A DNA stretch of 64,000 nt from Gemmatales bacterium (GCA_041640595.1 JBEPZY010000001.1:320001-384000); one strand, 5' to 3'. Positions 36,904-57,970 are shown, counted from the first letter of the stretch. The notes: generated from the letters alone by a model not told the origin. Made by a program: numbers and translations.

Positions 36904-38556
36904 ATGCCAGCGATGAACGGCCAACCAGTGATTGAGGTGTTACCACGGGTTTATCGGAGTATTCCCGCTCCCCAGCGAGCTCTGGAAGAGCTGCAGGCAG
37001 AGCTTTACGCAGAGGTACGGGCGAAAGGTCGGCCCGTCGGCCAACTGGTAACTGCTCTGCTCGACCGCCGCAACTTGTACGCTGCCTGGCGATTTGTCCG
37101 GAATGCCGATGGTGCTGACACCCCGGGGCCGGATGGCCTGACTTGCAAGGACCTGGAACAATCGGCGGATTCCGGGGATGCTTTGCATCGCTTGTTCGAA
37201 CAGATTAGCCGGGACATACTTGATGGCCGTTATTGTCCGCAACCGCCGCGCTGGGTAGAGGTTCCCAAGCCTAATGGTGGTACTCGGCGTTTGGGCATCC
37301 TGACGGTGCGGGATCGCCTTGTGCATGCCGCTCTCAAAAACGTTCTCGAACCTATCCTGGAGCCGATTTTTACTTCCGCCAGCTTTGGTTTTCGACCGGG
37401 GAGAAGCACCACTGCTGCTTTGCTGGCGGCCATTAGATGGGCCGGCCCAGATGATCACGGCCGGCTCGTTTATCCCTATGCCATGCATCTGGATATCGAG
37501 GACTGTTTCGACACCATAGACCACCAGCATCTGTTCAGCGCCCTTTCCGAGCATGTTGCCGATGCTATCGTCCTGAAGCTTCTTCGCAAGCTGTTGGAAG
37601 CCTGTGCCCATTCGGTGCGTCGCTGGTTTCGCACTTACTACGTTGGGCTGTTGCAGGGAAGTGTGCTTTCGCCGCTTTTATGCAATTTGGCTCTGCACTC
37701 CCTCGACAAGGTTATGCTCAACATGCGCAGCGCCACCCAGAAGGGTATCGCTTATTTCCGTTATGCGGACGACTTACTCATCCTGGCTCGCAGCGAAGAG
37801 CTGGCAGTCAAGGCTTTTCGTTCTGCCAGCGCTTTTTTGCAGAGCATCGGACAGCGCTTCAAGGCCCGCAAACCGGAAATCGCTCTCCTCACTCGCGGTG
37901 TCGAATGGCTTGGCATGCGTATCTGCGTCACCGTCAATCCCTGGACCTCGAAACTTCAGCCCGGTTACTACATTCCAGATGCCTGTGTGGCCGAGATGGT
38001 CCAACGCCTTCAGGAAATGACCGTTCCTCCCAGTGCTAAGCTATCGGAGCAAACCTTCGACCTCCGCCAATGGATCATATCTATCAACCGGCAGTTGCAA
38101 GGCTGGCACAATGCCTATCAATACGCCGAGAATTTTTACCAGGTGGCCCGTACACTCGATGACGTTGTTCAGCAGCGGTTCGAAGAGCTTCTGATGGCTG
38201 TCACCGGCAAAGGGCGTCAGTACGTACGGGGCACTTATCGGGTTCGTTTGCCCCGCGGATTCACGACTTGGCAGGTAGATGGGGAGCAGTTGCTGGTGCT
38301 ATCGTCCAAGCCGCCGCATTTCCCCAATCCGAAACTGCTCTACCAACGACCCGCCTGGATGCGTGCTCCGCAGAACGCCATCCTACCGCAAGCCAACGCT
38401 GGCCAGACGCCATTCTGGTTGAACAATTTGCCTCAGCAGGCTCTGCCTCAGCCGCAAGCCCAACCGCCGAATGCCTTTGCTAACCCTCAGGATACCACAA
38501 ATCAACCTGGGCCCCCCACAGGAACTAATCCGGCCACCGGTCAGCACAATCCCTAA
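36904..38556 (+). CDS. CRISPR-associated reverse transcriptase (group II intron-like, stand-alone)
   Basis: TPGPDG, PKPNGGTRRLGILTVRDRLVH, SFGFRPGRS, LDIEDCFDTIDH, QGSVLSPLLCN, RYADD; thumb-like INRQLQGW; P/Q-rich tail. Confidence 0.93.
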   Translation: MPAMNGQPVIEVLPRVYRSIPAPQRALEELQAELYAEVRAKGRPVGQLVTALLDRRNLYAAWRFVRNADGADTPGPDGLTCKDLEQSADSGDALHRLFEQISRDILDGRYCPQPPRWVEVPKPNGGTRRLGILTVRDRLVHAALKNVLEPILEPIFTSASFGFRPGRSTTAALLAAIRWAGPDDHGRLVYPYAMHLDIEDCFDTIDHQHLFSALSEHVADAIVLKLLRKLLEACAHSVRRWFRTYYVGLLQGSVLSPLLCNLALHSLDKVMLNMRSATQKGIAYFRYADDLLILARSEELAVKAFRSASAFLQSIGQRFKARKPEIALLTRGVEWLGMRICVTVNPWTSKLQPGYYIPDACVAEMVQRLQEMTVPPSAKLSEQTFDLRQWIISINRQLQGWHNAYQYAENFYQVARTLDDVVQQRFEELLMAVTGKGRQYVRGTYRVRLPRGFTTWQVDGEQLLVLSSKPPHFPNPKLLYQRPAWMRAPQNAILPQANAGQTPFWLNNLPQQALPQPQAQPPNAFANPQDTTNQPGPPTGTNPATGQHNP

Positions 38557-38588: not shown

Positions 38589-39617
38589 ATGGCGAAGCAC
38601 ATCACCTACGTGCAAACCCCGGTTGCCCATGTGGTCGGACCAGGCAAACTTAGGATTATCAACGGCCGCCTAGCTTTCACCACGGGCAACGGTACTCCCC
38701 TGCGCCTTGACCTCAACACTTTGCGTGCCATTTACTGCTACGGCAACGTCGGGGCAACTGATGAGGCGATACAACTGCTTTTTCAGCACGGCATTGACGT
38801 CGTTTGGCTTTCTCCAGCAGGTAACGAGTGTCGCGGACGACTCGTCCGCTACGATTCCAGCTCCGCTGCTTTGCGGATGATACAGCATCGCGTTTTGGCC
38901 CATCCACCCGCTCGACTGGAACTGGCCCGCTTCATCGTCCAGGCCAAAATTGAATCCCAAATGAAGGCCGCCAGGCATTATCAGCGCCAGGGGCTTTCTA
39001 TTGCCGGCAAATTCATCGAACAACTTCAGTCCGTTTTGGCTATGCTGCCCAGCGTGGCCTCTCTGGACGCCCTTCGTGGCTTTGAAGGACAGGCCTCCGC
39101 TCTCTGGTACGAGCTTTTCTCCCAGCTTCTTGTTCCCCCGTGGACCTTCCCTGGCCGCAACCGCAGACCACCTACAGACCCAGTCAATGCCTTGCTTAGC
39201 CTCGGCTACACCTTGCTCTTCCGCCGCACAGAGGCTAGAACCGAAGCTCACGGCTTGGAAGTCGCTCTGGGAGCTTTGCATGAATTCCGACACGGCCGAC
39301 CTTCCCTGGCCTGTGACTTTGTGGAGCCGTTTCGCGTCCCCGCTGTCGACCGATGGGTCCTGACTATTTGCAATCAACACCGCCTGCAGCCCCAACATTT
39401 CCAAAATACCCCGGAAGGTATCCGTTTGACCCCTGACATGTTTCCTCGTATCATTGCTTCGTGGGAACAACATTTCGTATCTCACGGTTTTGAACGCTCT
39501 TTGGAAAACTGCCTTCAGCAATGGATAAGCATCCTACGGTCCTGGGCGAACCGCTTGCCTGACCCCCTTTTGCCACCCCAGGACAGTGCACCCCCAGGCA
39601 ACACCGTAACTTCCTGA
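38589..39617 (+). CDS. cas1: CRISPR-associated endonuclease Cas1
   Basis: LRGFEG, RNRRPPTDPVNALLSLGY, GALH, LACDFVEPFR; AGGAGG RBS. Confidence 0.96.
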   Translation: MAKHITYVQTPVAHVVGPGKLRIINGRLAFTTGNGTPLRLDLNTLRAIYCYGNVGATDEAIQLLFQHGIDVVWLSPAGNECRGRLVRYDSSSAALRMIQHRVLAHPPARLELARFIVQAKIESQMKAARHYQRQGLSIAGKFIEQLQSVLAMLPSVASLDALRGFEGQASALWYELFSQLLVPPWTFPGRNRRPPTDPVNALLSLGYTLLFRRTEARTEAHGLEVALGALHEFRHGRPSLACDFVEPFRVPAVDRWVLTICNQHRLQPQHFQNTPEGIRLTPDMFPRIIASWEQHFVSHGFERSLENCLQQWISILRSWANRLPDPLLPPQDSAPPGNTVTS

Positions 39618-39748
39618 ACGCAAAACACTTACGTGCAAAAATGTCCTTACTGACAAAGCATCTCAACAAGCCTTTTCGTCGGGATGTCATACCGCTAGGC
39701 AGTTTCCGTTCTTATGTTCCGGCCCATTCGAGCGTTGCGCCCGCCAGA
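39618..39748 (+). promoter_or_regulatory. CRISPR leader
   Basis: Non-coding segment between cas1 and the first repeat; the opposite array end is degenerate. Confidence 0.7.
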
Positions 39749-42700
39749 CTCGCAACTTAGACCCCAACCAATAGGGGATTGAAACGATAGCGGCTACTAC
39801 CATTGTTCCTCCCTCCTTGGGCTCGCAACTTAGACCCCAACCAATAGGGGATTGAAACGCCGGGCCCTGGCCTTCCGGCTGGAGACCAGGGCCAGCTCGC
39901 AACTTAGACCCCAACCAATAGGGGATTGAAACAGTTCTGATGAGAAAGTTATACCCGCCGGCGTAGATGCTCGCAACTTAGACCCCAACCAATAGGGGAT
40001 TGAAACTGCATCTGTTGGCAAAGACTATCAATACCTTTAGAAACTCGCAACTTAGACCCCAACCAATAGGGGATTGAAACCGCCAGGGTTCCGGCCTGTA
40101 TCCGCGCTGCCGCCCCAGCCTCGCAACTTAGACCCCAACCAATAGGGGATTGAAACACTCGCAAGACGGGTATTGGCCTGTATCCGCGCTGCCGCCTCGC
40201 AACTTAGACCCCAACCAATAGGGGATTGAAACGACACTGCTGCCCCAGCAATAATCATGTCCAACCACCTCGCAACTTAGACCCCAACCAATAGGGGATT
40301 GAAACGTCGAAACTACTTCTTGCCCCGCCGCCCCCGCCCGGCTCGCAACTTAGACCCCAACCAATAGGGGATTGAAACCACTGCTGCCCCAGCAATAATC
40401 ATGTCCAACCACCTCCTCGCAACTTAGACCCCAACCAATAGGGGATTGAAACAATCATGTCCAACCACCTCCTTGGGCCCGTTGATAAACTCGCAACTTA
40501 GACCCCAACCAATAGGGGATTGAAACGGTGCGAGGCAGCTACTTCTTGTTTTTGCTACGCCCGCCTCGCAACTTAGACCCCAACCAATAGGGGATTGAAA
40601 CTGAACTTGCACCCTAAGCTTTTCCAGCTCCGCCAGACTCGCAACTTAGACCCCAACCAATAGGGGATTGAAACCATTGCGGCTCCGGCTATCATACTCC
40701 CCTCCTTTGGGCTCGCAACTTAGACCCCAACCAATAGGGGATTGAAACCTCCGGCTATCATACTCCCCTCCTTTGGGCCGAATAACTCGCAACTTAGACC
40801 CCAACCAATAGGGGATTGAAACAATCCGACAATGATGGATACTAGGCAGATTGCGGCTCTCGCAACTTAGACCCCAACCAATAGGGGATTGAAACCACAC
40901 AAACAACAACATCTTGGATAACCTTTGGTAACTCGCAACTTAGACCCCAACCAATAGGGGATTGAAACACCAACCAAACCTCCGATGCCGCCACGCATTC
41001 CCGGCTCGCAACTTAGACCCCAACCAATAGGGGATTGAAACAGCAGACGACCCCTGGCCGGACTCGATGAGTTGCATGACTCGCAACTTAGACCCCAACC
41101 AATAGGGGATTGAAACAGTATCCAACCAAGAATTACACTGACCAGTGCCAAACTCGCAACTTAGACCCCAACCAATAGGGGATTGAAACAATGACCATCT
41201 AACACTTTACCTTCATAAAGACAACCTCGCAACTTAGACCCCAACCAATAGGGGATTGAAACACCGTAGACGCCGAGGATGAGAGGCCTAAGCATTCAAT
41301 CTCGCAACTTAGACCCCAACCAATAGGGGATTGAAACCAAAGACGAGGCCTGCGGCTCCTCACTGGTCCACCCCTCGCAACTTAGACCCCAACCAATAGG
41401 GGATTGAAACACATTTCGTCAGAATCTGTTTGCCCCAACATTAACGCCTCGCAACTTAGACCCCAACCAATAGGGGATTGAAACGGCCAGGAGGAATCCG
41501 ACTAGCACAGATACTAAGGACTCGCAACTTAGACCCCAACCAATAGGGGATTGAAACACTGCCGCGCCGACAACAATCATAATTCTCCCCTCCTCTCGCA
41601 ACTTAGACCCCAACCAATAGGGGATTGAAACCAACGAATTTTGCAAAATTGGTAACGCAGTTTCCAAACTCGCAACTTAGACCCCAACCAATAGGGGATT
41701 GAAACGCGGGCGATGCGGGCCAGTATGAACCCGAGGAGGACCTCGCAACTTAGACCCCAACCAATAGGGGATTGAAACCCCGAGGAGGACAGAAACGAGA
41801 GAAATGCCAGCGCCCTCGCAACTTAGACCCCAACCAATAGGGGATTGAAACGTCTTCTTGGCCCGGGGCTCCCGCCGGGCCCGGCGGGCCTCGCAACTTA
41901 GACCCCAACCAATAGGGGATTGAAACATCATGTCCTCTCCTCCTGCGTCTGGGGCCCGTTGATCTCGCAACTTAGACCCCAACCAATAGGGGATTGAAAC
42001 CGGGCGATGGCCCTGTCGACGGAACTTACGGATCTGCACTCGCAACTTAGACCCCAACCAATAGGGGATTGAAACAGTGGTGCCCGCGCTTCCGCCGCAG
42101 AAGCGCGCCGACCTCGCAACTTAGACCCCAACCAATAGGGGATTGAAACGGGCACTCCAATTGAAGTGGTGCCCGCGCTTCCGCCGCCTCGCAACTTAGA
42201 CCCCAACCAATAGGGGATTGAAACCTTCCCGGCGTCCGCCGCCTGCGGCTCCCCACTGGGCCTCGCAACTTAGACCCCAACCAATAGGGGATTGAAACTT
42301 GCCCGCCGCGGGCCTCGTCAAAGACGAGGCCGCACTCGCAACTTAGACCCCAACCAATAGGGGATTGAAACATCGTTCATCAAACCCATCAACCAAATCC
42401 AACTCACAACTCGCAACTTAGACCCCAACCAATAGGGGATTGAAACAAAAGTACTGCGCCACGCGCTCCATATGGCTGCCTCCTCGCAACTTAGACCCCA
42501 ACCAATAGGGGATTGAAACATACCAGCTCCAACAATAATCATGTCCTCTCCTCCTCGCAACTTAGACCCCAACCAATAGGGGATTGAAACACCAGCTCCA
42601 ACAATAATCATGTCCTCTCCTCCTGCGCTCGCAACTTAGACCCCAACCAATAGGGGATTGAAACTTGCGGGTCTTGCCCCGCCGCCGCTCCCGCCGAGAC

Positions 42701-45700
42701 CTCGCAACTTAGACCCCAACCAATAGGGGATTGAAACCCCGATCAAGAGAGAGACCAAAGCAACCCCCGCCCCTCTCGCAACTTAGACCCCAACCAATAG
42801 GGGATTGAAACACGGCGCTATTTCTTGCGGGTCTTGCCCCGCCGCCGCTCTCGCAACTTAGACCCCAACCAATAGGGGATTGAAACGCCCGGGCCGCCGG
42901 GAGACCCGGATGCGGGCCAGGACACTCGCAACTTAGACCCCAACCAATAGGGGATTGAAACCTTACCTGCCTGTGGCGTGACGCTAAGTCTTGCGGCCTC
43001 GCAACTTAGACCCCAACCAATAGGGGATTGAAACCCGAGAACGACGGAAACGAGCGCTATTGTTGACCCGGCCTCGCAACTTAGACCCCAACCAATAGGG
43101 GATTGAAACCCCGGCTATCATACTCACCCTCCTGCGTTGCGTCTTTCTCGCAACTTAGACCCCAACCAATAGGGGATTGAAACTGAGCCGGCGGTACAAT
43201 TCCCGCCGGTCCTCGGTGGTCTCGCAACTTAGACCCCAACCAATAGGGGATTGAAACCCGGCTCCCCACTGGGCACTCCAACTGAAGTGGTGCCCGCCTC
43301 GCAACTTAGACCCCAACCAATAGGGGATTGAAACTGCTCCCAACACCATTTTTCTCCCCTCCATTTGGGCTCGCAACTTAGACCCCAACCAATAGGGGAT
43401 TGAAACTGTCCCGCCCGGGCCGCCGCCCCCGGCTGCTCCGGGCCTCGCAACTTAGACCCCAACCAATAGGGGATTGAAACCCATGTGGCGTGGCGGGTGT
43501 TAAGACTTGCGGCGGGTCTCGCAACTTAGACCCCAACCAATAGGGGATTGAAACGACGAGGCCGCAGTCAGGGCAGCGGCTGGCCTCCTCGGCTCGCAAC
43601 TTAGACCCCAACCAATAGGGGATTGAAACGGCGTCGACCGGGCGACCACCCGATCGGAATTTGTGGCTCGCAACTTAGACCCCAACCAATAGGGGATTGA
43701 AACGCGGTCAGATCGAAAAGAAAGGACAAAATTATAATCTCGCAACTTAGACCCCAACCAATAGGGGATTGAAACCCCCCCCGCGTTTACCGGCCTTCCT
43801 TGGCCGGTTGCCCCTCGCAACTTAGACCCCAACCAATAGGGGATTGAAACGCCAGTATGAATCCGACCAGGACCGAAATGATAGAAACTCGCAACTTAGA
43901 CCCCAACCAATAGGGGATTGAAACGACCAGGACCGAAATGATAGAAATGGAAGCTCCCAACAACTCGCAACTTAGACCCCAACCAATAGGGGATTGAAAC
44001 CCAACAACATTTTTTTCCTCCACATTTGGTTTTGGCCTCGCAACTTAGACCCCAACCAATAGGGGATTGAAACGATAGAAATGGAAGCTCCCAACAACAT
44101 TTTTTCCTCCCTCGCAACTTAGACCCCAACCAATAGGGGATTGAAACGCCGCTACAATGCGGCAAGGGCGTGGCCGTGCCACTCCTCGCAACTTAGACCC
44201 CAACCAATAGGGGATTGAAACGCGGGACAAGCGCAAGTAGCCGTCGTCACGATCTTTCTCGCAACTTAGACCCCAACCAATAGGGGATTGAAACAATGGC
44301 CGCTCCAGCAATAATCATATTCTCCCTCCATCTCGCAACTTAGACCCCAACCAATAGGGGATTGAAACAGCAATAATCATATTCTCCCTCCATTGGGCCA
44401 GTTGACTCGCAACTTAGACCCCAACCAATAGGGGATTGAAACACAGCGCAAGGCTGGATACTCAACGAAGCCGATGCACTCGCAACTTAGACCCCAACCA
44501 ATAGGGGATTGAAACACCCGGTTACGCCGAGTGAGCCGGCGATACAACTCCCCTCGCAACTTAGACCCCAACCAATAGGGGATTGAAACGGCCTGATGGG
44601 GTTTCCAGTCGCCATCCTGCCCGTGCCCTCGCAACTTAGACCCCAACCAATAGGGGATTGAAACAACTACCACGGCGGCCTGCCTCTGACCCCTAACCCA
44701 GCTCGCAACTTAGACCCCAACCAATAGGGGATTGAAACACGCCGAGTGAGCCGGCGATACAACTCCCGGCGGTCCTCGCAACTTAGACCCCAACCAATAG
44801 GGGATTGAAACTAGGCAGGCCTGATGGGGTTTCCAGTCGCCATCCTGCCTCGCAACTTAGACCCCAACCAATAGGGGATTGAAACAATAGACCTTGCGAT
44901 TAAGTCTGCGGAAGTTCTCATGCTCGCAACTTAGACCCCAACCAATAGGGGATTGAAACTTCTCGCCCGGCTCCTGGGCCTCCGGAGCCGGGCACTCGCA
45001 ACTTAGACCCCAACCAATAGGGGATTGAAACAACAGGTGACGGAACCCTAAACTTCTTCACCTTCGACTCGCAACTTAGACCCCAACCAATAGGGGATTG
45101 AAACACCTTCGACACTTTAACCTCAATGTTACCATCCAGGCTCGCAACTTAGACCCCAACCAATAGGGGATTGAAACTTAGCCTTCCGCAGGACTTCGTC
45201 CGGAACACGCAATCTCGCAACTTAGACCCCAACCAATAGGGGATTGAAACCGTCCCCCCACTACCCCGATGTAGTGGGGGCGGACACCTCGCAACTTAGA
45301 CCCCAACCAATAGGGGATTGAAACTCAAACAGGTGACGGAACCCTAAACTTCTTCACCTTCTCGCAACTTAGACCCCAACCAATAGGGGATTGAAACTGG
45401 CCATACATGCAAGGCGGCCACCTATGCCAGCCAACCTCGCAACTTAGACCCCAACCAATAGGGGATTGAAACCCGGAGCGGACCCGGGCTAGGATAAACC
45501 CAATCAGAACTCGCAACTTAGACCCCAACCAATAGGGGATTGAAACCCGCCGCCGCCCCCGGCTCTTGCCCCGGTCCCGCCGCCTCGCAACTTAGACCCC
45601 AACCAATAGGGGATTGAAACTCCCGGCGGCTCACTCGGAGGTTATCCGGGGCCTCCCTCTCGCAACTTAGACCCCAACCAATAGGGGATTGAAACCGCGG

Positions 45701-48700
45701 GGGCACGCTCGGTTCCTCCGAGTGAGCCGCCGGTCTCGCAACTTAGACCCCAACCAATAGGGGATTGAAACCGACCTTCCTTGGTCGGTTGCCCGCTGCG
45801 GCCCTCGTCCTCGCAACTTAGACCCCAACCAATAGGGGATTGAAACGCAGTCTGGGCAGCGGGTGGTCTCTTCCCTCAACGGCCCTCGCAACTTAGACCC
45901 CAACCAATAGGGGATTGAAACACCCGGGCAAGGATAAATCCGGTTAGCACTGAGATCACTCGCAACTTAGACCCCAACCAATAGGGGATTGAAACTCTTA
46001 CCCTCCATTTTTTGGTCCTTGGGGCCCGTTGACTCGCAACTTAGACCCCAACCAATAGGGGATTGAAACTCCACCGACGCGACTTCTGCACCTTTAAGCC
46101 CTCCTCCTCGCAACTTAGACCCCAACCAATAGGGGATTGAAACTGCTGCTCCGCCTGCTGCTGCTGCTGCTGCTCCCTCGCAACTTAGACCCCAACCAAT
46201 AGGGGATTGAAACAACTTCGATGTGACCACCATCCAGAAGAATCCTAGCACTCGCAACTTAGACCCCAACCAATAGGGGATTGAAACCGCAAAGCACATG
46301 AGATGTATTTGAAAAATCCTAAATCTCGCAACTTAGACCCCAACCAATAGGGGATTGAAACACTGCTGACCCTAGCAGCATCTTTCTCCTCCCTCATCTC
46401 GCAACTTAGACCCCAACCAATAGGGGATTGAAACTGTCCCGCCCGGTCCGCCGCCGGGCGAGGCGGGCCAGCTCGCAACTTAGACCCCAACCAATAGGGG
46501 ATTGAAACGCATCTTTCTCCTCCCTCATGGTCCTTGGGGCCCGTTCTCGCAACTTAGACCCCAACCAATAGGGGATTGAAACAGCATCTTTCTCCTCCCT
46601 CATGGTCCTTGGGGCCCGTTCTCGCAACTTAGACCCCAACCAATAGGGGATTGAAACATCACCCAATTACAAATAGCCGCCGGGATTCTTTCCCCTCGCA
46701 ACTTAGACCCCAACCAATAGGGGATTGAAACGACTTGCCCTGCTGAGGCTCGTCGAAGACGAGCCGGCACTCGCAACTTAGACCCCAACCAATAGGGGAT
46801 TGAAACGAGGTACTCGCAGGACGGGTATTGACCTGTATCCGCGCTCGCAACTTAGACCCCAACCAATAGGGGATTGAAACAGCGGGTGGCTTCCTCCGTC
46901 AACGGCCACCCGCAACGCTCGCAACTTAGACCCCAACCAATAGGGGATTGAAACGGAACGCACGAAACGCACGCAAACCATCCTCTAAACCTCGCAACTT
47001 AGACCCCAACCAATAGGGGATTGAAACAACGCCAGGAAACCTGCCCGTGCGGTGGGCCGCCCTCCTCGCAACTTAGACCCCAACCAATAGGGGATTGAAA
47101 CCGCTATTTCTTGCGGGTCTTGCGCCCCCGCCCCCGGCCTCGCAACTTAGACCCCAACCAATAGGGGATTGAAACAGTAAGATCGCTCTCGAAAGTCAAT
47201 CGCGATGTCCGCCTCGCAACTTAGACCCCAACCAATAGGGGATTGAAACGACAGTAACTCCATCGTTCCGGCAAACTACTTGGTACTCGCAACTTAGACC
47301 CCAACCAATAGGGGATTGAAACGATTCTTGCTCCGCCGACCCCGCCGACCCCGCCGGAGCTCGCAACTTAGACCCCAACCAATAGGGGATTGAAACACTC
47401 TTCGATGTCCTGTACGGGCCTGATGGCACCACCTCGCAACTTAGACCCCAACCAATAGGGGATTGAAACCACCCCTTCTCGCCCGGCTCCTGGGCCTACG
47501 GCAGCCCTCGCAACTTAGACCCCAACCAATAGGGGATTGAAACCGCGATGTCCGCCTCTTCTGGGTTTTCGTCATCCCAACTCGCAACTTAGACCCCAAC
47601 CAATAGGGGATTGAAACGGAATTTATCCTTTTCATTTTCCATAACCTCCTCAAACTCGCAACTTAGACCCCAACCAATAGGGGATTGAAACCTATTAAGA
47701 TGAGGTCGTAATATTACGTTTACGTGCCTCGCAACTTAGACCCCAACCAATAGGGGATTGAAACTTTTTTGAGTAAGATCGCTCTCGAAAGTCAATCGCG
47801 CTCGCAACTTAGACCCCAACCAATAGGGGATTGAAACCTTCGTCCCTTTTCGGCCCATCCTTCTCGCCCGGCTCCTCGCAACTTAGACCCCAACCAATAG
47901 GGGATTGAAACTCAGGAGCCGGGCAAAGTCCGACCCCCGCTACCCCGCTCGCAACTTAGACCCCAACCAATAGGGGATTGAAACGTTCCTTCCTAACATT
48001 ATCTTCTGGTTCGTGTTTTTCGCTCGCAACTTAGACCCCAACCAATAGGGGATTGAAACTTTTATAACTGCTACACGGACCACGGCCTTCCCTCCTTCTC
48101 GCAACTTAGACCCCAACCAATAGGGGATTGAAACCCTGTGGCGGGCGGCTACGACTTCTTGCGCTTCTTCTTCTCGCAACTTAGACCCCAACCAATAGGG
48201 GATTGAAACCACTACCATTCCTACACCTCCTTCCTTTGGTTTTGGCTCGCAACTTAGACCCCAACCAATAGGGGATTGAAACCCCGGGAGATTGGTCTTT
48301 GCCGCCGGGCCCGGGCCAGCCTCGCAACTTAGACCCCAACCAATAGGGGAATTGAAACGCCCATAACATTTCTCTTTCCTCCTGGTCTTTGGGGCCCTCG
48401 CAACTTAGACCCCAACCAATAGGGGATTGAAACGACCACGCCCCCGCCCGGGCCACCGGGAGACCCGGGCCTCGCAACTTAGACCCCAACCAATAGGGGA
48501 TTGAAACCATTTCTCTTTCCTCCTGGTCTTTGGGGCCCGAATACTCGCAACTTAGACCCCAACCAATAGGGGATTGAAACTGACAGCTGCCCATAACATT
48601 TCTCTTTCCTCCTGGTCCTCGCAACTTAGACCCCAACCAATAGGGGATTGAAACGGCCCGGGCGGGGGCGTGGTCTTTGGGGCCCGAATAAACTCGCAAC

Positions 48701-51700
48701 TTAGACCCCAACCAATAGGGGATTGAAACAACATTTCTCTTTCCTCCTGGTCTTTGGGGCCCGAATCTCGCAACTTAGACCCCAACCAATAGGGGATTGA
48801 AACGTAGTACTTTGCGTAGTGCATAATATCCCTCCTATAGCCTCGCAACTTAGACCCCAACCAATAGGGGATTGAAACAACGATAACTTCATAAACGCCG
48901 GATTTTTCAACAAACTCGCAACTTAGACCCCAACCAATAGGGGATTGAAACAGAACACAAACGTTTCAAACTTTGATTTAACCCAGTCTCGCAACTTAGA
49001 CCCCAACCAATAGGGGATTGAAACGACAGACAGCTGCTCCTAGCATGTCCATTTCCTCCGCTCGCAACTTAGACCCCAACCAATAGGGGATTGAAACACC
49101 TGGCGGGTGCGAGGCTAAGTCTTGCGCTTTTTTCTCGCAACTTAGACCCCAACCAATAGGGGATTGAAACTCCGTCTTTGGGGCCCGTTGATAAGACCCC
49201 TCCCTACTCGCAACTTAGACCCCAACCAATAGGGGATTGAAACGCTCTTGTCCCGCTCCCGGCGGGTCCGGGCCCGGCGCTCGCAACTTAGACCCCAACC
49301 AATAGGGGATTGAAACATAATTCCCGGCGGTCCTCGACATCGACCTGCCGGACCTCGCAACTTAGACCCCAACCAATAGGGGATTGAAACGCTGTGGGGC
49401 TAAGGCGGAAACCCCACAATCCTGCCTCGCAACTTAGACCCCAACCAATAGGGGATTGAAACGACGCGGGCAAGCAGGAATCCAATTAGGACGGAGGCCT
49501 CGCAACTTAGACCCCAACCAATAGGGGATTGAAACTCCTGTTACTTCTGAAAGAGTTTCCAGTCGACAAAACCTCGCAACTTAGACCCCAACCAATAGGG
49601 GATTGAAACCGCTTGGACCTGTTCTTGCTGAGGTTGATCAGCTTGCTCGCAACTTAGACCCCAACCAATAGGGGATTGAAACACTACCATTTCCCTTTTT
49701 TAGGAGTTGAAGCTGACCAAACTCGCAACTTAGACCCCAACCAATAGGGGATTGAAACTATAATACCCTCTATAAGGCTTGGCATGGGCCTTAATCCTCG
49801 CAACTTAGACCCCAACCAATAGGGGATTGAAACTCGGCGGGCCGCTTTTCTTTGGAGGGAACGCCGGTCCTCGCAACTTAGACCCCAACCAATAGGGGAT
49901 TGAAACAGAAATGGCCGCTCCGGCTATCATATTTCCTCCCTCCCTCGCAACTTAGACCCCAACCAATAGGGGATTGAAACACTATGTCCCTTCCGTGATA
50001 GAGGTACTCGCAGGACGGCTCGCAACTTAGACCCCAACCAATAGGGGATTGAAACGGCTAAGGCGGAAACCCCACAATCCTGCCTCTGGGCCTCGCAACT
50101 TAGACCCCAACCAATAGGGGATTGAAACCCTCGTCCGTCAACGGCCACCCGCAACGGGGGCACTATGCTCGCAACTTAGACCCCAACCAATAGGGGATTG
50201 AAACGGCCAATGCCGGGTAGATTGTATCTAACGCCACGGGCCTCGCAACTTAGACCCCAACCAATAGGGGATTGAAACACAGGTACACTTTATCAAACCC
50301 GTACTCCTTGCCTTTCTCGCAACTTAGACCCCAACCAATAGGGGATTGAAACGACGCCGTCTGCTACGCGGGGGCTACCGGGCTCCGGCCTCGCAACTTA
50401 GACCCCAACCAATAGGGGATTGAAACACTGGACAACCGGCTCGAACTTCAAGCCAAGACTGGCCTCGCAACTTAGACCCCAACCAATAGGGGATTGAAAC
50501 GTCCGTCAACGGCCACCCGCAACGGGGGCATGCCCGGCTCGCAACTTAGACCCCAACCAATAGGGGATTGAAACGACGTGGCCGCCGGACCCGTCGGATA
50601 TGGCCGCCGTCCTCGCAACTTAGACCCCAACCAATAGGGGATTGAAACGCAATCGCCTTGGGCACCACGGGACGTGGCCGCCGGACTCGCAACTTAGACC
50701 CCAACCAATAGGGGATTGAAACTCCATTTTAATGCCCACGCGGCAATCGCCTTGGGCACCTCGCAACTTAGACCCCAACCAATAGGGGATTGAAACACAA
50801 CGGAAACAATTGCTATGACTGATCTGGCTATCTCGCAACTTAGACCCCAACCAATAGGGGATTGAAACGTTATCCAGATCAACAACCTCAACCTCACAAC
50901 TTCCCTCGCAACTTAGACCCCAACCAATAGGGGATTGAAACTAATGTGTAGTCTCTCATCAGGTTGAATGCCACATTTCTCGCAACTTAGACCCCAACCA
51001 ATAGGGGATTGAAACGTGAAGCTGCGGCTTGTCATATTTGACCTCCTTTCTAACTCGCAACTTAGACCCCAACCAATAGGGGATTGAAACACCGAAACGA
51101 TTGCTACTGCTGCTCCTATAACCATAACTCGCAACTTAGACCCCAACCAATAGGGGATTGAAACGCTGCTCCTATAACCATAATTTCCTCCTGCGTCTTT
51201 CTCGCAACTTAGACCCCAACCAATAGGGGATTGAAACCCTGCCATCGGGCCATCCAGGCCATTGCGGCCCATGCCTCGCAACTTAGACCCCAACCAATAG
51301 GGGATTGAAACATATGAAACCGCATGGTAGAGTTGTTCATTTGCAGGCTCGCAACTTAGACCCCAACCAATAGGGGATTGAAACAATTACTTCAGCATAT
51401 CGCTCAATATATCGGACCATGCTCGCAACTTAGACCCCAACCAATAGGGGATTGAAACTCATATCCTCCCTCCATTATGGTTTGGGCCCGTTGACTCGCA
51501 ACTTAGACCCCAACCAATAGGGGATTGAAACAGCATAACATCTCATTAAGTGAACGCTCTTCCTAACCTCGCAACTTAGACCCCAACCAATAGGGGATTG
51601 AAACGCAAGGGCGTGGCCGTGCCACTCAGCCGGGTTCATACTCGCAACTTAGACCCCAACCAATAGGGGATTGAAACGCAGTCTGGGCAGCGGGTGGCTT

Positions 51701-54700
51701 CCTCGGTGAGAGGCCTCGCAACTTAGACCCCAACCAATAGGGGATTGAAACGGTTCATAGGCCGGAACCGGGAACCGGCCTCCCCCGACCTCGCAACTTA
51801 GACCCCAACCAATAGGGGATTGAAACGCCTGATGGGGTTTCCAGTCGCCATCCTGCCCGTGCCCTCGCAACTTAGACCCCAACCAATAGGGGATTGAAAC
51901 GCCCGGCTGAGTGGCACGGACAGGAGGCGCCGCCTTTCTCGCAACTTAGACCCCAACCAATAGGGGATTGAAACGGGTTCATAGGCCGGAACCGGGAACC
52001 GGCCTCCCCCGCTCGCAACTTAGACCCCAACCAATAGGGGATTGAAACCGTTCCTGCTTTCCCTCTATGTCCCTTCCGTGATAGAGGCTCGCAACTTAGA
52101 CCCCAACCAATAGGGGATTGAAACCGTGAACATTTACAGGAGTAAGGTCTTCACCACCTTCTCGCAACTTAGACCCCAACCAATAGGGGATTGAAACACC
52201 AGGGTCGGGTCGGTCCTCTCCCCTGGCCCGTAACCTCGCAACTTAGACCCCAACCAATAGGGGATTGAAACGTCGAAGACGAGCCCGCAGTCTGGGCAGC
52301 GGGTGGCCTCGCAACTTAGACCCCAACCAATAGGGGATTGAAACACGCGGGGGCTACCGGGCTCCGGCAGCCCGGGCCCCCCTCGCAACTTAGACCCCAA
52401 CCAATAGGGGATTGAAACCCCAGCGCGGAGCCGGGACCGTGGCCAACTACCACGGCCTCGCAACTTAGACCCCAACCAATAGGGGATTGAAACTTTCGGA
52501 GCTGTTGCTATTGATGTTTTCAATACTACTCGCAACTTAGACCCCAACCAATAGGGGATTGAAACCGTTGATGACCCCTCCTACCGGGCCGGCCCCATCG
52601 CCCTCGCAACTTAGACCCCAACCAATAGGGGATTGAAACAGCCTCCCGCCAGTACTCCCTATACCCGTGCGGTGAGCCTCGCAACTTAGACCCCAACCAA
52701 TAGGGGATTGAAACCCACGCCCCCCGCCCCCGCCGGGAGAGCAGGGCCAGGCTCGCAACTTAGACCCCAACCAATAGGGGATTGAAACGATAAATCTTGT
52801 TAAACTTAGCGTAACACCTCATCCTCGCAACTTAGACCCCAACCAATAGGGGATTGAAACCCCTGTGGCGGGCGGCTAAGACTTCTTGCGCCCCCGGCTC
52901 GCAACTTAGACCCCAACCAATAGGGGATTGAAACACGGGTATTGAACCTGTATCCGCGCTGCCGCCCCAGCCTCGCAACTTAGACCCCAACCAATAGGGG
53001 ATTGAAACGTCCTTAACAACCGACATAAACGGAATGCCCAAATACTCGCAACTTAGACCCCAACCAATAGGGGATTGAAACACTCTAACTGGATCATCCG
53101 AAAACGTAGCCAAAACCTCGCAACTTAGACCCCAACCAATAGGGGATTGAAACGCTTCCTCGGTGAGAGGCCACCCGCAGCGGGGGCACACCCTCGCAAC
53201 TTAGACCCCAACCAATAGGGGATTGAAACTAGCGAACGTGCAACTCTAACTGGATCATCCGAAAACCTCGCAACTTAGACCCCAACCAATAGGGGATTGA
53301 AACATCCGCGCTGCCGCCCCAGCGCGGAGCCGGGACCGTGCTCGCAACTTAGACCCCAACCAATAGGGGATTGAAACAGTTATCTCCCTGGGGTTTTGGT
53401 GAACTCCCGGCAGCCTCGCAACTTAGACCCCAACCAATAGGGGATTGAAACGTCCTTACCAGTCGGTGGCAATGGCTCGGGATTCACCTCGCAACTTAGA
53501 CCCCAACCAATAGGGGATTGAAACCCTGGGTTAAAAATGGGCACACAAAAAGGAGGCGCCCTCGCAACTTAGACCCCAACCAATAGGGGATTGAAACGGT
53601 CGTTATTAAGGTGAATACCACAAACGGTTCCAATACTCGCAACTTAGACCCCAACCAATAGGGGATTGAAACAGTAGTGAATTAACGGATGATCCGACAA
53701 ATCATCAACCTCGCAACTTAGACCCCAACCAATAGGGGATTGAAACCTCTCTTCTTTTGTTTTCTTGGTAGTTTTTGTCGAACTCGCAACTTAGACCCCA
53801 ACCAATAGGGGATTGAAACGCTGTTAGGCCGCCGTGGTTGGAGAAAGCATGAGCTCCTCGCAACTTAGACCCCAACCAATAGGGGATTGAAACACCCGCG
53901 GGGGCCGGCCTTCCCTGTGGCGGGTACGAGACTCGCAACTTAGACCCCAACCAATAGGGGATTGAAACGACGTGACGGCTAAGACTTCTTGCGCCCCCGC
54001 CGGGCTCGCAACTTAGACCCCAACCAATAGGGGATTGAAACAATAGCTATGACTGATCCTCCCAACATACCTCCCTCCTCGCAACTTAGACCCCAACCAA
54101 TAGGGGATTGAAACCGGGAGAGACTGGCGGCTGGTCTAGAACTGGCCCCGCTCTCGCAACTTAGACCCCAACCAATAGGGGATTGAAACCTGTGGCGGGT
54201 ACGGCTAAGACTTCTTGCGCCCCCGCCTCGCAACTTAGACCCCAACCAATAGGGGATTGAAACACTTTGTGAATGTGAGCTACCTCCATCCACGAATATC
54301 CTCGCAACTTAGACCCCAACCAATAGGGGATTGAAACACCGACCCGCGGGGGCCGGTCTTCCTGGCGGGTGCTCGCAACTTAGACCCCAACCAATAGGGG
54401 ATTGAAACTGTCTACATCCTCACTGCTTTCGTGAGGGTCCCAAACTCGCAACTTAGACCCCAACCAATAGGGGATTGAAACGCCACTTGAGGACCCAACA
54501 GCGAATTGGTGACGGGCTCGCAACTTAGACCCCAACCAATAGGGGATTGAAACCGGACCATGGCTATCCTCCTGTTTGGCCCGCCCTTCCTCGCAACTTA
54601 GACCCCAACCAATAGGGGATTGAAACTTCTCGCCCGGCTCCTGGGCCTCCGGCAGCCGGGCACTCGCAACTTAGACCCCAACCAATAGGGGATTGAAACA

Positions 54701-57700
54701 AGACCTCGTCCGGGATTTTCAGACTAAAGCCCCGAGCCTCGCAACTTAGACCCCAACCAATAGGGGATTGAAACTTCAACCCCGTTATCCAGGATAAGCT
54801 TTGCGAACCGGCTCGCAACTTAGACCCCAACCAATAGGGGATTGAAACCAATAAGAAAAGCGACTAACGTGTTTACCCAGAACTGTCTCGCAACTTAGAC
54901 CCCAACCAATAGGGGATTGAAACTATCTTTACGCATCTTTCCATATTTGTCCTCCCCTTTCTCGCAACTTAGACCCCAACCAATAGGGGATTGAAACAAT
55001 GCGGTGAGTGTGAAACTCGCAAAAACCCTAGAACTCGCAACTTAGACCCCAACCAATAGGGGATTGAAACTCTGGCAACTGGTCAGTTGGTCTCGGTTGG
55101 CTACATCTCGCAACTTAGACCCCAACCAATAGGGGATTGAAACATGATTGTAGCGACACGGACCATGGCTATCCTCCTTCTCGCAACTTAGACCCCAACC
55201 AATAGGGGATTGAAACACACGGATTTGCGGCAGGCTAATACTTAGCCTGCCTCTCGCAACTTAGACCCCAACCAATAGGGGATTGAAACAACCATACCTA
55301 AAAACTCACAAAACAGGTAGAACGGCTCGCAACTTAGACCCCAACCAATAGGGGATTGAAACGGCAACGCGATAGACATTTCACTCTGCAGATCCCAATC
55401 TCGCAACTTAGACCCCAACCAATAGGGGATTGAAACACCCCCACTACCCCGATGTAGCGGAGGGCGGACAACACTCGCAACTTAGACCCCAACCAATAGG
55501 GGATTGAAACGCCCGGCTCCTGGGCCTACGGCAGCCGGGCAAAGTCCCTCGCAACTTAGACCCCAACCAATAGGGGATTGAAACGGATTTGCGGCAGGCT
55601 AATACTTAGCCTGCCTCAGACTCGCAACTTAGACCCCAACCAATAGGGGATTGAAACGGCCCGGCGGTCGAAGGAGGTCTAACGACACTATATCTCGCAA
55701 CTTAGACCCCAACCAATAGGGGATTGAAACTATAGCCGTGGCTCGGCAGGGCAGGAGCGCTGGGAACTCGCAACTTAGACCCCAACCAATAGGGGATTGA
55801 AACTTAACCCAGTCAATAACGGTGCTAACGATTTCGGACTCGCAACTTAGACCCCAACCAATAGGGGATTGAAACAATGTCGAACAGATATTTCAAACTT
55901 CTCACCTTTAACCTCGCAACTTAGACCCCAACCAATAGGGGATTGAAACTCCTAGCGCATCGTTCCATGCCTGTCTCCCTGTTTGGCCTCGCAACTTAGA
56001 CCCCAACCAATAGGGGATTGAAACGAATTCCCGGTCAACATAAAGGCCATTGACCTCAATCTCTCGCAACTTAGACCCCAACCAATAGGGGATTGAAACA
56101 GCTGCGTTGGCTGTGTAGCCGCATGGCCACATGGCCTCGCAACTTAGACCCCAACCAATAGGGGATTGAAACGTCACGTCCTCTCCCTGTGGCGGGTGAC
56201 GACGGCTAACTCGCAACTTAGACCCCAACCAATAGGGGATTGAAACAATCCGATAAGAACGGATACAATAGCTATGGCCGACCTCGCAACTTAGACCCCA
56301 ACCAATAGGGGATTGAAACGAAAGAGTTTCAGCCAGTCGATAAAACTTTCATCAGTCTCGCAACTTAGACCCCAACCAATAGGGGATTGAAACTGCAGTC
56401 CTGAGAATGCACACAGCACATAGATCGTCCTCGCAACTTAGACCCCAACCAATAGGGGATTGAAACTGTGCTTTCATCCAATCAAGCACGAACTGACGCC
56501 ATCTCGCAACTTAGACCCCAACCAATAGGGGATTGAAACATCAAAAGAGTAATGTCTATTCAAAAGCCAACATACCCTCGCAACTTAGACCCCAACCAAT
56601 AGGGGATTGAAACCCAACAACGTTTTCAACCGTAGCAACGCGGGCGGTGCTCGCAACTTAGACCCCAACCAATAGGGGATTGAAACACTGCCGACCCTAA
56701 CATCTTCCATCTCCATTATGGTCTCGCAACTTAGACCCCAACCAATAGGGGATTGAAACGCCAGTCGATAAAACTTTCATCAGTAACTGGCCTACGAGCT
56801 CGCAACTTAGACCCCAACCAATAGGGGATTGAAACATACCATTGTTGAAATCAACCTGTTGACCTTGCTCCTCTCGCAACTTAGACCCCAACCAATAGGG
56901 GATTGAAACTCTTCCATCTCCATTATGGTCTTTGGGCCCGTTGATACTCGCAACTTAGACCCCAACCAATAGGGGATTGAAACCTTCATTACGATGGTGT
57001 GCTGCACGCCTGTTAACCTCGCAACTTAGACCCCAACCAATAGGGGATTGAAACACAGTTACTTTCCAGGACTCAACAGGGTTGTCCAACTCGCAACTTA
57101 GACCCCAACCAATAGGGGATTGAAACGGTTATTCTCTTGCGATTACGCCCCAGTGCGTAATCGCTCGCAACTTAGACCCCAACCAATAGGGGATTGAAAC
57201 AGTATCGCATGGCATTCCTCCTGTTCTTTTACCCTCTCGCAACTTAGACCCCAACCAATAGGGGATTGAAACTCCGAGCTTTTGGAACTTTCACCTCCAC
57301 GGTGCCATCTCGCAACTTAGACCCCAACCAATAGGGGATTGAAACCAATAGCTATGGCCGACCCTCCTAACATCTCTTTCCCTCGCAACTTAGACCCCAA
57401 CCAATAGGGGATTGAAACCTTGAACTTTACGTAACTTCTCAGGATGTGTAACTTTCTCGCAACTTAGACCCCAACCAATAGGGGATTGAAACCTGGCTGC
57501 TTCTTTAAGGGCTTCGATGCAAAAGCCCCTCGCAACTTAGACCCCAACCAATAGGGGATTGAAACGACTTGGATTTGGTTCTTTCTAGGCATAGTTTTAC
57601 CCTCGCAACTTAGACCCCAACCAATAGGGGATTGAAACCTACCACCAGGACGAGGAGGGAAAGCAGCACAAATACTCGCAACTTAGACCCCAACCAATAG

Positions 57701-57934
57701 GGGATTGAAACCCAACAACGTTTTCAACCGTAGCAACGCGGGCGGTGCTCGCAACTTAGACCCCAACCAATAGGGGATTGAAACACCGGCTTGGAGATAG
57801 CTCAGGCAGAACCGACCCGATCTCGCAACTTAGACCCCAACCAATAGGGGATTGAAACGACCGCGTCCGGACCCTGGCCAGAATAAAGCCGACCAGCCTC
57901 GCAACTTAGACCCCAACCAATAGGGGATTGAAAC
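39749..57934 (+). CRISPR. Giant CRISPR array, 37-bp repeat CTCGCAACTTAGACCCCAACCAATAGGGGATTGAAAC, ~245 repeats
   Basis: Near-invariant repeat with CCCC/GGGG stem and ATTGAAAC 3' end; spacers ~34-40 bp; one repeat with an extra A at 48321-48358. Count estimated from span / ~74 bp. Confidence 0.99.
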
Positions 57935-57970
57935 GGTAGGGTGGAGGATTAGCTGTAATGGCAGCTCTGC

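Follow-up and report, generated by a model that had tools for sequence, protein, structure and literature searches.

The CRISPR array at positions 39749..57934 of the window, the 64,000-nucleotide stretch of DNA from a Gemmatales bacterium analysed here, has repeatedly sampled a very small sequence space in one orientation. Its crRNAs match small genes, being complementary to their coding strand, and by gene adjacency the array is an RT-associated CRISPR adaptation module. The invader is in no database searched, and the array is the only record of it. We give about an even chance to the explanation that the tiled RNAs come from a diverse, unsampled family of DNA elements, phages or plasmids, and represent its earliest or most stable small transcripts. 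The module and its array comprise the following features.

36211..36525, plus strand: cas2, 104 aa (NCBIfam TIGR01573, E 1.3e-7, above cut-off)
36904..38556, plus strand: stand-alone reverse transcriptase (RT) of group-II-intron type, 550 aa, not fused to Cas1 (Pfam RVT_1, E 1.6e-33)
38589..39617, plus strand: cas1, 342 aa (Pfam Cas_Cas1, E 6e-74; NCBIfam cas1, E 4e-57)
39618..39748, plus strand: presumed array leader, from cas1 to the first repeat (by position only)
39749..57934, plus strand: CRISPR array, 247 repeats (37 nt, ending ATTGAAAC) and 246 spacers (repeat and spacer calls)
48321..48358, plus strand: single variant repeat with one inserted A (repeat comparison)

The order is cas2, RT, cas1 and then the array, which starts at 39749 and has the same direction as the cas genes; the RT association named in the original prediction is borne out by these genes directly upstream. 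The YADD motif is intact in the RT translation, Rfam gave no match for intron RNA around the gene at E up to 1 (35900-39800), and the score against NCBIfam group_II_RT_mat (241 bits) is below the cut-off of 300; for these reasons the RT is judged catalytically intact by motif and not merely a landed group II intron. It is the sole RVT_1 match genome-wide. Orthologs with 60-64% identity adjoin same-type arrays in three of three same-genus genomes, in which the cas2/RT/cas1/array arrangement recurs.

The repeats are identical in 246 of 247 cases, and spacers measure 33-40 nt. The crRNA corresponds to the plus strand and carries the 8-nt tag ATTGAAAC; the type I-B repeat of the same genome, read along the direction of its own cas genes, has the same ending. 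No effector genes were found within the window or adjoining the RT module. Elsewhere in the genome, a Cmr1-6/Cas10 module lies beside the type I-B genes on contig C8, contigs C23 and C20 carry Csm1, Csm2, Csm4 and Csm5 with a CARF protein, C3 has a third Cas10-like ORF, and genes for Cas6 are found on C5 and C23. The other arrays of the genome are the type I-B array (341 spacers) and a small third array (5 spacers).

Regarding overlap among the 246 spacers, 109 pairs have a common 14-mer in the same orientation versus 3 in opposite orientation (104 spacers involved), and each of five shuffles of the spacers gave 0 and 0. The earlier claim that spacers overlap one another mostly in one orientation therefore holds, and it also holds against another large array, the type I-B array of the same genome, which served as control and yielded 16 same versus 6 opposite pairs (29 of 341 spacers). 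Same-type arrays from three same-genus genomes (135 spacers in total) gave 10 same versus 1 opposite pairs. With an overlap of at least 12 nt and a mismatch of at most 10%, 101 of the 246 spacers group into 33 tiles through 78 same-strand and 4 opposite-strand links; tiles named beforehand at 40233-40489, 43851-44110, 48359-48766 and 50575-50759 are all real. The effective sampled space estimated from pairwise overlap is about 9.5 kb, versus about 158 kb for the type I-B array, and that of 123 tiled spacers is about 2.4 kb with all variants counted. About half of the array is untiled and AT-richer than the tiled spacers. The overlaps come in bursts: 27 of the 78 overlapping pairs are at most three array positions apart (permutation mean 1.9, maximum 8, 2000 trials), and perfect matches make up 26 of 27 near pairs versus 17 of 39 far pairs.

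The genes read from the spacers, and the spacer groups that represent them, are listed below.

42520..42997, plus strand: spacers 38-44, each from the membrane-protein gene, whose start, helix, basic tail and stop are represented (by co-occurrence)
43851..44110, plus strand: spacers 56-59, a tile over the ribosome-binding site, ATG and hydrophobic N-terminus (by tiles)
44222..44257, plus strand: spacer 61, second reversed family spacer, targeting the strand antisense to the gene (by overlap)
48060..48766, plus strand: spacers 113-122, ten in a row that derive from the membrane-protein gene family, with one variant supplying seven (48283-48766; by tiles and co-occurrence)
48655..48692, plus strand: spacer 121, whose target opens with the conserved leader and goes on with sequence complementary to the region coding for the basic tail (by overlap)
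51605..52456, plus strand: spacers 161-172, zinc-ribbon gene mixed with non-coding structured tiles, the second target group (by tiles and co-occurrence)

The main target gene encodes a protein of about 50 aa with a membrane helix, a hydrophobic N-terminus and an Arg/Lys-rich basic tail, a composition read from 12-aa fragments; the second encodes a zinc-ribbon protein with two CxxC motifs. On the target-sense strand, 27 of 246 spacers contain peptide motifs of the family, compared with none on the other strand, and a ribosome-binding site followed by ATG and an open frame occurs 31 versus 3 times, in agreement with the proposal that the crRNA is antisense to a reading frame. The four consecutive spacers at 43851, 43925, 44001 and 44074 do assemble across the ribosome-binding site and ATG as predicted, with spacers 58 and 59 differing by one A in the A-run ahead of the ATG. 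Mismatches between variants number 40, 22 and 113 at codon positions 1, 2 and 3, a test that is partly circular because frames were picked by peptide motif; the differing codons are synonymous in 78 cases and not in 53. Both the first and the last spacer belong to the gene family, as had been claimed, and family spacers stand along the whole array. The idea of one element family is not supported as put: there are at least two co-occurrence groups, the membrane-protein gene and the zinc-ribbon gene with non-coding tiles, besides the untiled half.

Pure runs reach ten spacers from a single gene of about 0.2-0.3 kb, and one run places diverged membrane-gene variants next to each other (spacers 113, 115 and 117-122). 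In 10 of 11 spacers, a conserved 5' leader motif of the target begins 3-8 nt from the target-sense start, and the same leader type stands ahead of different ORFs. The pile-up point is not an absolute end, since spacer 128 has other sequence upstream of it. Three spacers (61, 80 and 121) are directed against the opposite strand; spacer 121 is opposite in orientation to spacer 118 (48434-48470), with a perfect opposite-strand overlap of 21 nt.

The GC content is 62.9% in tiled spacers and 65-76% in long tiles, compared with 57.6% in the genome and 55.1% in type I-B spacers. Mean folding energy of tiled spacers is -10.7 versus -9.2 when shuffled, and the six longest tile consensus sequences have folding z values of -3.2, -6.4, -1.9, -2.5, -0.1 and +1.4. 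The description of the targets as hairpin-dense is right for the zinc-ribbon and non-coding tiles and wrong for the start region of the membrane-protein gene, which is not structured.

No protospacers were found in the organism's own genome, in 100 relatives and 400 genomes of the phylum, in INPHARED (phage) and PLSDB (plasmid), or, by single-pattern scans, in IMG/VR, JGI metagenomes and GTDB genomes. The dsDNA phage or host-chromosomal protospacers that would count against the original prediction did not turn up in the own genome, relatives or public DNA collections, in DNA searches that were not exhaustive, and the RNA collections searched gave no protospacer either. The type I-B control array is equally blank in INPHARED, and because of this the blank in phage collections is uninformative on an RNA replicon. 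None of the 341 type I-B spacers shows a family motif in the target-sense direction; the scan pooled these with the 5 spacers of the third array (346), and a single hit to the opposite strand probably arose by chance. One spacer of the RT-associated array resembles DNA-encoded sequence.

57639..57674, plus strand: spacer 243, similar to a type I-B spacer and to a DNA-encoded gene on contig C15 of the same assembly (sequence matches)

This spacer matches C15:1428-1454 over 27 nt with 2 mismatches and the type I-B spacer at C8:17895 in 22 of 24 nt; over the whole spacer, 30 of 36 positions agree (hand count).

Under the preferred explanation, small transcripts of DNA elements, the module would take spacers from RNA via cDNA, and the RNA pool that it sees would be dominated by a few short, abundant, GC-rich invader RNAs. 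If cDNA synthesis runs off at a favoured 5' end of the RNA, spacer ends would accumulate 3-8 nt ahead of the conserved motif, and a single episode could add several spacers drawn from one RNA, which would account for the runs of neighbours that overlap perfectly. The surviving lineages would be only those with crRNA antisense to the transcript, because the type III effectors located elsewhere (Cmr by the type I-B array; Csm on other contigs) fire only on complementary RNA. The first RNA may be a promoter-proximal or processed short mRNA for the membrane-helix protein, whose composition is like that of type I toxins or small early proteins of phages, and the second may be a transcript with the zinc-ribbon gene and a structured non-coding RNA; a conserved 5' segment would be common to many diverged variants. 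The intact RT beside cas2 and cas1, the narrow sampling, bursts, 5' pile-up, antisense orientation and third-position changes all favor this explanation. Diverged variants adjacent in one run are explained more simply if a single DNA element carries paralogs, the DNA-encoded gene that spacer 243 resembles is a target of the type I-B array too, and published strand bias, 5' hotspots and RT-array targets have DNA-source precedent. The one dominant viral transcript offered as an alternative in the original prediction fits published type III array behaviour at least as well as an RNA replicon does. Against transcripts of DNA elements, a DNA protospacer was not found wherever searched, the GC content of tiled spacers is above that of the host, which is unusual for same-host phages or plasmids, and pure runs of up to ten spacers need extreme dominance of one transcript. 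Three spacers target the opposite strand, and one of them, 121, opens with the conserved leader, a pattern that complementary termini of a replicating RNA would produce. The lack of family motifs in type I-B spacers also tells against a DNA source, although with little power if the source genome is large.

Less probable, and put forward only tentatively, is that the targets are small RNA replicons of this bacterium, satellite-, viroid- or mini-virus-like, with conserved and possibly complementary termini. One would be about 0.25-0.3 kb and encode the membrane-helix protein with its basic tail, the other larger and structured with the zinc-ribbon gene, and the RT module would be the cell's only route to record them. 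Pure runs from one tiny gene, a sampled space of about 2.4 kb including variants, the conserved 5' end with its pile-up, and the failure to find a DNA copy in the own genome, relatives or public DNA collections are consistent with such replicons, as are GC content and structure above the host background (the two longest tiles have z = -3.2 and -6.4). Spacer 121 joins the leader to the complement of the 3' part of the gene, and 61 and 80 are also opposite-strand; this share is 3 of 112 14-mer pairs and 4 of 82 overlap links, and antisense transcription of DNA would give the same. There is a precedent in the RT array of Roseiflexus, described below. However, the 36-nt pieces, which are too short for ribozyme models, showed no recognisable sign of an RNA polymerase or ribozyme. 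The sequence upstream of the pile-up point in spacer 128, the highly diverged variants together in one run, and the single leader type before different ORFs, like a repeated promoter or processing module, also speak against replicons. For a circular or rod-like genome the signs go both ways: no spacer bridges a head-to-tail junction (246 spacers, 36-nt pieces) and pairing of the putative terminal repeat in the best-covered variant has no inward continuation (letters read by eye), but the long tiles fold strongly. Strand bias and 5' hotspots have already been explained for DNA phages in the available parts of PMC7515739 and PMC13575424.

It is unlikely that the bursts reflect interference-coupled ('primed-like') adaptation, in which target RNA fragments cleaved by type III effectors feed the RT-Cas1 module. 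This mechanism fits either kind of source and competes with sheer abundance as the cause of tiling; the near pairs, almost all perfect, and the runs from one gene would suit it. On the other side, the available parts of the literature cited here have none on record for type III, and the hotspot in PMC13575424 is described there as independent of interference.

Very unlikely is a small DNA element, either a small plasmid or a linear molecule with inverted ends, sampled as DNA at its free ends by Cas1-Cas2 with the RT uninvolved. It is known that Cas1-Cas2 can gain entry at free DNA ends, and the pile-up and the leader on both strands could mark DNA termini with inverted repeats. The type I-B module, however, should sample such an element too, and here its 0 of 341 spacers has power; the orientation ratios of 109:3 and 31:3 track transcripts, and the RT has been kept next to this array type in all three congeners. 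Duplication or recombination of spacers inside the array, to which one exact duplicate pair (229, 244) and another pair shifted by 1 nt (92, 93) would be attributable, is rejected for the bulk of the overlaps and has a negligible chance, since these are nearly all staggered, extend into ORFs and differ at third positions.

It is conceivable, although we doubt it, that the array is a fossil record of unseen protein-coding RNA mini-replicons in a hot-spring planctomycete. If so, a replicon of about 0.25-0.3 kb would encode a single membrane protein of about 50 aa with a basic tail between conserved complementary termini, and would be among the smallest protein-coding replicators known; a partner of about 1 kb would be highly structured and carry the zinc-ribbon gene. 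Both would have been recorded only because the lineage keeps a stand-alone RT with Cas1-Cas2, and the spacers would already give part of the sequence of the smaller element.

Type I toxin mRNAs (hok, fst, tisB) encode proteins shorter than 60 aa that combine a single membrane helix with a charged tail; they are short, stable, structured and often multi-copy on mobile elements, some with an antisense RNA. The main target is alike by composition only, each piece being just 12 aa, and no antitoxin RNA for it was identified.

Retained type III spacers in Thermus thermophilus show a near-total strand bias from positive selection, with crRNA complementary to phage transcripts (PMC7515739), as here; that system, in the part of the account available, is without an RT and concerns laboratory infection with a known phage. 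In Streptococcus thermophilus, type III-A hotspots sit just downstream of conserved early phage promoters, with spacers piling up over variable small early ORFs while a co-resident DNA-targeting array samples genome-wide (PMC13575424). These features are shared, but that system is reported to sample DNA without an RT, its targets are known dsDNA phages, and a sharp start point within a few nt is not described in the available part of the paper.

The type III-B array encoding an RT in Roseiflexus sp. RS-1 from Yellowstone mats likewise belongs to a hot-spring bacterium with several CRISPR systems, one with an RT in its adaptation module. According to the available parts of the reports, that RT array alone bears spacers against small RNA agents, with many spacers on the same small targets, including a 315-nt hammerhead-bearing circular RNA (10.1101/2022.02.15.480533, 10.1101/2022.07.19.500677); 3,650 of 3,958 metatranscriptome contigs matched by the array nevertheless had a DNA counterpart (10.1101/2022.02.15.480533). 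The host is of another phylum, the RT is fused to Cas1 there whereas here it is a separate gene between cas2 and cas1 with no adjoining effectors, and the targets were found there in metatranscriptomes and are known here from spacers alone. An RT adjacent to cas1 and unfused is a recognised arrangement (PMC5513706). The RT-linked arrays of Arthrospira platensis, in the part of that study available, also hold 'enigmatic' spacers that match almost nothing in databases, the few matches being mostly to DNA phages (PMC5513706); those arrays are hyperdiverse and non-saturating, whereas in the present array close to half of the spacers fall within a few hundred to a few thousand nucleotides.

The CRISPR array and its adaptation genes are encoded on the same strand, with the following coordinates within the window:

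36211-36525, + strand: cas2, directly upstream of the array, with the reverse transcriptase and cas1
36904-38556, + strand: stand-alone reverse transcriptase (RVT_1, E 1.6e-33), YADD motif present
38589-39617, + strand: cas1, same strand as the array and upstream of it
39749-57934, + strand: CRISPR array, 247 repeats of 37 nt and 246 spacers of 33-40 nt
48321-48358: variant repeat with one extra A before the ATTGAAAC end, the sole non-consensus repeat among 247 (the other 246 are identical)

The reverse transcriptase (RT) is the single RVT_1 match across the 4.45-Mb assembly. An Rfam search detected no group II intron RNA or other Rfam family around it, and the 378-nt gap between cas2 and RT (36526-36903) gave no Rfam match and a folding energy on a par with its shuffles (z = +0.30). 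In the direction of the cas genes the repeat has the 3' end ATTGAAAC; because the repeat of the type I-B array in the same genome ends likewise, the + strand was taken as the crRNA strand. No effector genes adjoin the array, which is flanked by housekeeping genes and by one VWA-like and one kinase-like gene. In the opposite-strand cluster just upstream of cas2 (31469-35977, - strand), a VWA-like and a protein-kinase-like ORF accompany two ORFs with no assigned family; the cluster may be another defence-type cassette. The effectors have their genes at other sites in the genome. A type I-B set (with Cas1b, Cas4, Cas3, Cas5 and Cas7) precedes a complete Cmr (type III-B) module and adjoins a second giant array; Csm (type III-A) genes occupy two small contigs, next to a small third array; and there are also a further Cas10-like ORF and two Cas6 genes. 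The second giant array, which has a 30-nt repeat and 341 spacers, lies outside the window across two contig ends (C8:1-21080 and C10:65235-66999) and served as the internal control.

The original prediction held that many spacers overlap one another, mostly in one orientation and in excess of other large arrays, and the counts agree with it on each point. Spacer pairs sharing a 14-mer numbered 109 on the same strand and 3 on opposite strands (five shuffles: 0 and 0), with 104 of the 246 spacers involved, versus 16 and 6 pairs, with 29 spacers involved, in the type I-B array. When spacers were grouped into tiles (overlap of at least 12 nt, mismatch of at most 10%), 101 of the 246 fell into 33 tiles, joined by 78 same-strand and 4 opposite-strand links. 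The effective sampled space is about 9.5 kb for the window array versus about 158 kb for the type I-B array, and about 2.4 kb for the 123 tiled spacers alone. Spacers 229 and 244 (56614-56649 and 57712-57747), 15 positions apart, are exact duplicates, and the adjacent spacers 92 and 93 (46509-46545 and 46583-46620) differ by one extra end base only; such pairs could stem from separate captures of one fragment or from local duplication.

Small genes can be read from the tiles. On the target-sense strand (the reverse complement of the spacer), the largest cluster, 59 spacers joined by 11-mers together with members recognised by motif alone, covers a conserved leader, a strong ribosome-binding site and ATG, a hydrophobic stretch (e.g., a 12-aa piece in spacer 27) and an Arg/Lys-rich tail with its stop (e.g., spacer 42). 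Judging by one variant's pieces in spacers 30 and 38-43, the predicted membrane protein would measure about 50 aa. A second set of six clusters (13, 8, 8, 8, 7 and 6 spacers) covers a gene with two CxxC motifs, a putative zinc-ribbon protein (spacers 182, 162 and 170), as well as several strongly folded tracts that carry indels and do not code for protein. A MAFFT alignment of the complete set of pieces merged the two CxxC motifs. ARAGORN found no tRNA or tmRNA in the 33 tile consensus sequences.

Regarding strand, the crRNA had been predicted to be antisense to a reading frame, and this was confirmed: the peptide motifs of the family occur 27 times in target sense versus 0 on the other strand (246 spacers). 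The corresponding counts were 0 and 1 in the type I-B and small third arrays (346 spacers), and 0 and 0 in arrays of congeners (135 spacers). A ribosome-binding site with ATG and open frame was found 31 times in target sense versus 3 on the other strand in the window array, and 7 versus 3 times in the type I-B array. Among 30 pairs from 32 framed spacers, mismatches between variants fell 40, 22 and 113 times on codon positions 1, 2 and 3, and the differing codons were 78 synonymous and 53 nonsynonymous, a test that is partly circular because the frames were chosen by motif. The zinc-ribbon variants in spacers 162 and 97 differ by four bases, all synonymous. Spacers 58 and 59 (44001-44036 and 44074-44110), members of the same run, have 7 and 6 A before the ATG, which may reflect polymerase or RT slippage, or variation in the target population. 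Spacer 87 (46144-46176) is a low-complexity run of GCA/GCT-type triplets, and comparable runs of the host genome match it over 18 nt.

Acquisition was clustered along the array. Overlapping pairs within three array positions made up 27 of 78 (permutation mean 1.9, maximum 8 in 2000 trials). Matches were perfect in 26 of 27 near pairs and in 17 of 39 pairs more than 10 positions apart; several spacers were therefore gained per variant at once, and many diverged variants over time. The sixths of the array hold 20, 25, 24, 21, 19 and 14 tiled spacers, and the first and last spacers are both among them, as expected from the claim that the newest and the oldest spacer hit one gene family. The membrane-protein gene forms pure runs (spacers 7-10, 27-30, 38-44, 56-59, 90-93 and 113-122), and the zinc-ribbon and non-coding clusters occur together in other runs (spacers 65-69 and 161-172). 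The variant repeat at 48321-48358 sits mid-way in the longest single-gene run. One variant of the first gene is seen both ahead of a second-set run and behind it (spacers 30 and 38-39), so the two targets coexisted. Whatever the source, interference-coupled acquisition may contribute to the bursts. Pure runs out of one tiny gene favour RNA replicons as the source, one of the two readings originally proposed; diverged variants side by side in one run were counted for transcripts of DNA elements.

The target-sense starts pile up at the 5' end of the leader. In 10 of 11 spacers bearing the leader core, it lies 3-8 nt from the target-sense start, the exception being spacer 128, with the core at 19 nt and other sequence upstream; two further spacers begin 2 nt ahead of the core. 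Such a pile-up is compatible with run-off of cDNA at a transcription start or processing site. A conserved end fits an RNA replicon, and the presence of some sequence upstream of this 'end' was counted for DNA transcripts, as was the reuse of the leader before different ORFs, with a related leader standing ahead of one or more other types of short ORF (spacers 201, 206 and 220). Three spacers (121, 61 and 80) target the opposite strand. The target of spacer 121 reads the leader first and then the complement of the tail-coding region; spacer 118 represents that region in the usual sense, and the two overlap perfectly over 21 nt. This could be explained either by an RNA with complementary termini and both polarities, a hint in favour of a replicon, or by an RT template switch at a 5-nt microhomology.

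The GC content is 62.9% in tiled spacers, 51.1% in untiled spacers, 55.1% in type I-B spacers and 57.6% in the genome. The reassembled tracts had been described as packed with hairpins, which holds in part. Among the long tile consensus sequences, those of the second set show clear structure (z = -3.2, -6.4, -1.9 and -2.5), unlike the start region of the membrane-protein gene (z = +1.4); these z-scores are approximate because the consensus sequences mix variants. Single tiled spacers barely exceed shuffles (-10.7 versus -9.2 kcal/mol; GC-matched host 37-mers, -8.9). GC and structure above the host background are consistent with RNA replicons.

An RNA source had been put forward on the understanding that protospacers would be missing from dsDNA phages and the host chromosome, and within the scope of the following searches none was found in either. 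In the window's own genome, 88 15-mer matches were obtained (37-56 for shuffles), none of them extendable, and no member of the family was seen among proposed ectopic spacer scars. The genomes of 100 relatives yielded no protospacer, the matches being same-type arrays and one low-complexity 28-nt match. BLAST of the array found none in INPHARED phages or PLSDB plasmids (the plasmid query was 39786-55500 only). As a control, the type I-B array (15.8 of its 21 kb queried) was just as blank against phages, so the phage result carries no weight and the local mobilome is simply unsampled. Scans of IMG/VR, JGI and GTDB used single patterns, and their blanks are weak evidence: no protospacer appeared in seven pattern scans of IMG/VR or two of JGI metagenome contigs. 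A degenerate zinc-ribbon peptide pattern had 0 matches in IMG/VR and 0 in JGI metagenomes; a second zinc-ribbon pattern and a membrane-helix pattern each had 0 in IMG/VR. Exact spacer cores gave one 21-nt IMG/VR match (locus L009), attributed to chance, with unfitting flanks. The pattern of leader, ribosome-binding site and ATG had 0 IMG/VR, 9 JGI and 12 GTDB matches; all 21 were unrelated, with downstream open frames unlike the family in every case, and many share one recurring, unrelated coding context in which, judging by the peptide, a type II dehydroquinase gene probably begins. In 400 genomes from the phylum, the zinc-ribbon pattern with 2 mismatches allowed matched 6 times outside the own genome (reversed control, 3), and all 5 of the matches inspected were generic zinc ribbons of other proteins.

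A sequencing-run search listed one run, of DNA, labelled 'hot springs metagenome' (0.11 of words), which may be the assembly's own source; no RNA run was among those listed as sharing array words. Contigs of this run (compared over 39000-58500) carry array fragments at 99% identity or more, together with two alternative joints: one from 43338 to 44107, which omits 768 nt and has 25 other letters at the joint, and one from 44965 to 52696, which omits 7.7 kb. One contig has a different spacer after 52721. Variants of the array that carry deletions or other spacers thus exist in the natural population. None of the contigs extended into unlike sequence, so none was seen to bear a protospacer (sensitivity for 36-nt matches is uncertain).

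Apart from spacer 243, and perhaps spacer 147, the overlaps between the window array and the type I-B array arise by chance. Spacer 243 (57639-57674) resembles C15:1425-1460 (locus L013) at about 30 of 36 positions, and the type I-B spacer C8:17895-17929 resembles the same gene at 22 of 24. The 9.6-kb contig C15 has tightly packed ORFs on one strand, none with a PHROG match, and could be a mobile element that was binned with the genome. Because spacer 243 resembles both a DNA-encoded gene and a type I-B spacer, the window array also keeps a record of transcripts from DNA elements. That the type I-B array lacks the family is informative only for a small source, since a 40-kb phage would contribute very few DNA-derived spacers per 0.3-kb gene.

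A pattern scan of GTDB contigs found no protein relatives of the RT; orthologs came from a genome search, in which those of all three same-genus genomes (60-64% identity) adjoin arrays with a near-identical repeat, and only distant RTs were found beyond the genus. The arrays of these genomes (G001-G003, loci L019-L039) are of the same type, with a repeat that departs from that of the window array at its 5' end and in a single internal base; in G002, 241 repeats are spread across contigs of about 0.6 kb. The 135 congener spacers sampled have no same-strand 12-mer in common with the window array. They contain 10 same-strand and 1 opposite-strand overlapping pairs (15 spacers involved) and thus tile too, on their own other, hairpin-containing targets, so that narrow sampling seems to be a property of the module and not of one strain.

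Taken together, there is about an even chance that the tiled spacers derive from small, abundant transcripts encoded by DNA. One study reports that strand bias arises through selection alone (PMC7515739). RNA replicons are a possible but rather doubtful source: no DNA copy was found in the collections searched, and the RT array of Roseiflexus offers a precedent (10.1101/2022.02.15.480533; 10.1101/2022.07.19.500677), but in the former report most RNA contigs matched by that array (3,650 of 3,958) have DNA counterparts. A small DNA element captured as DNA, and other sources, share the remaining probability. As far as sequence can tell, small RNAs are most probably sampled in an RT-dependent way, in bursts and with a focus on the 5' end, and the antisense crRNAs would serve the type III effectors encoded elsewhere. 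If the source is DNA, the array would be a natural example of such sampling from the earliest or most stable transcripts, and the promoter-proximal hotspots of type III adaptation, as outlined in PMC13575424, would extend to RT-bearing systems.

The tiled spacers are ready probes for whether planctomycetes host RNA replicons. RT-linked CRISPR arrays are, to our knowledge, the sole natural recorders of intracellular RNA, and the sources of most of their spacers have yet to be identified. Here nearly half of the 246 spacers reassemble among themselves into pieces of invader genes, including the 5' end, the strand and the variant spectrum. The array probably belongs to the known class of RT-linked type III arrays, and it is of unusual interest for reconstructing parts of its targets unaided.
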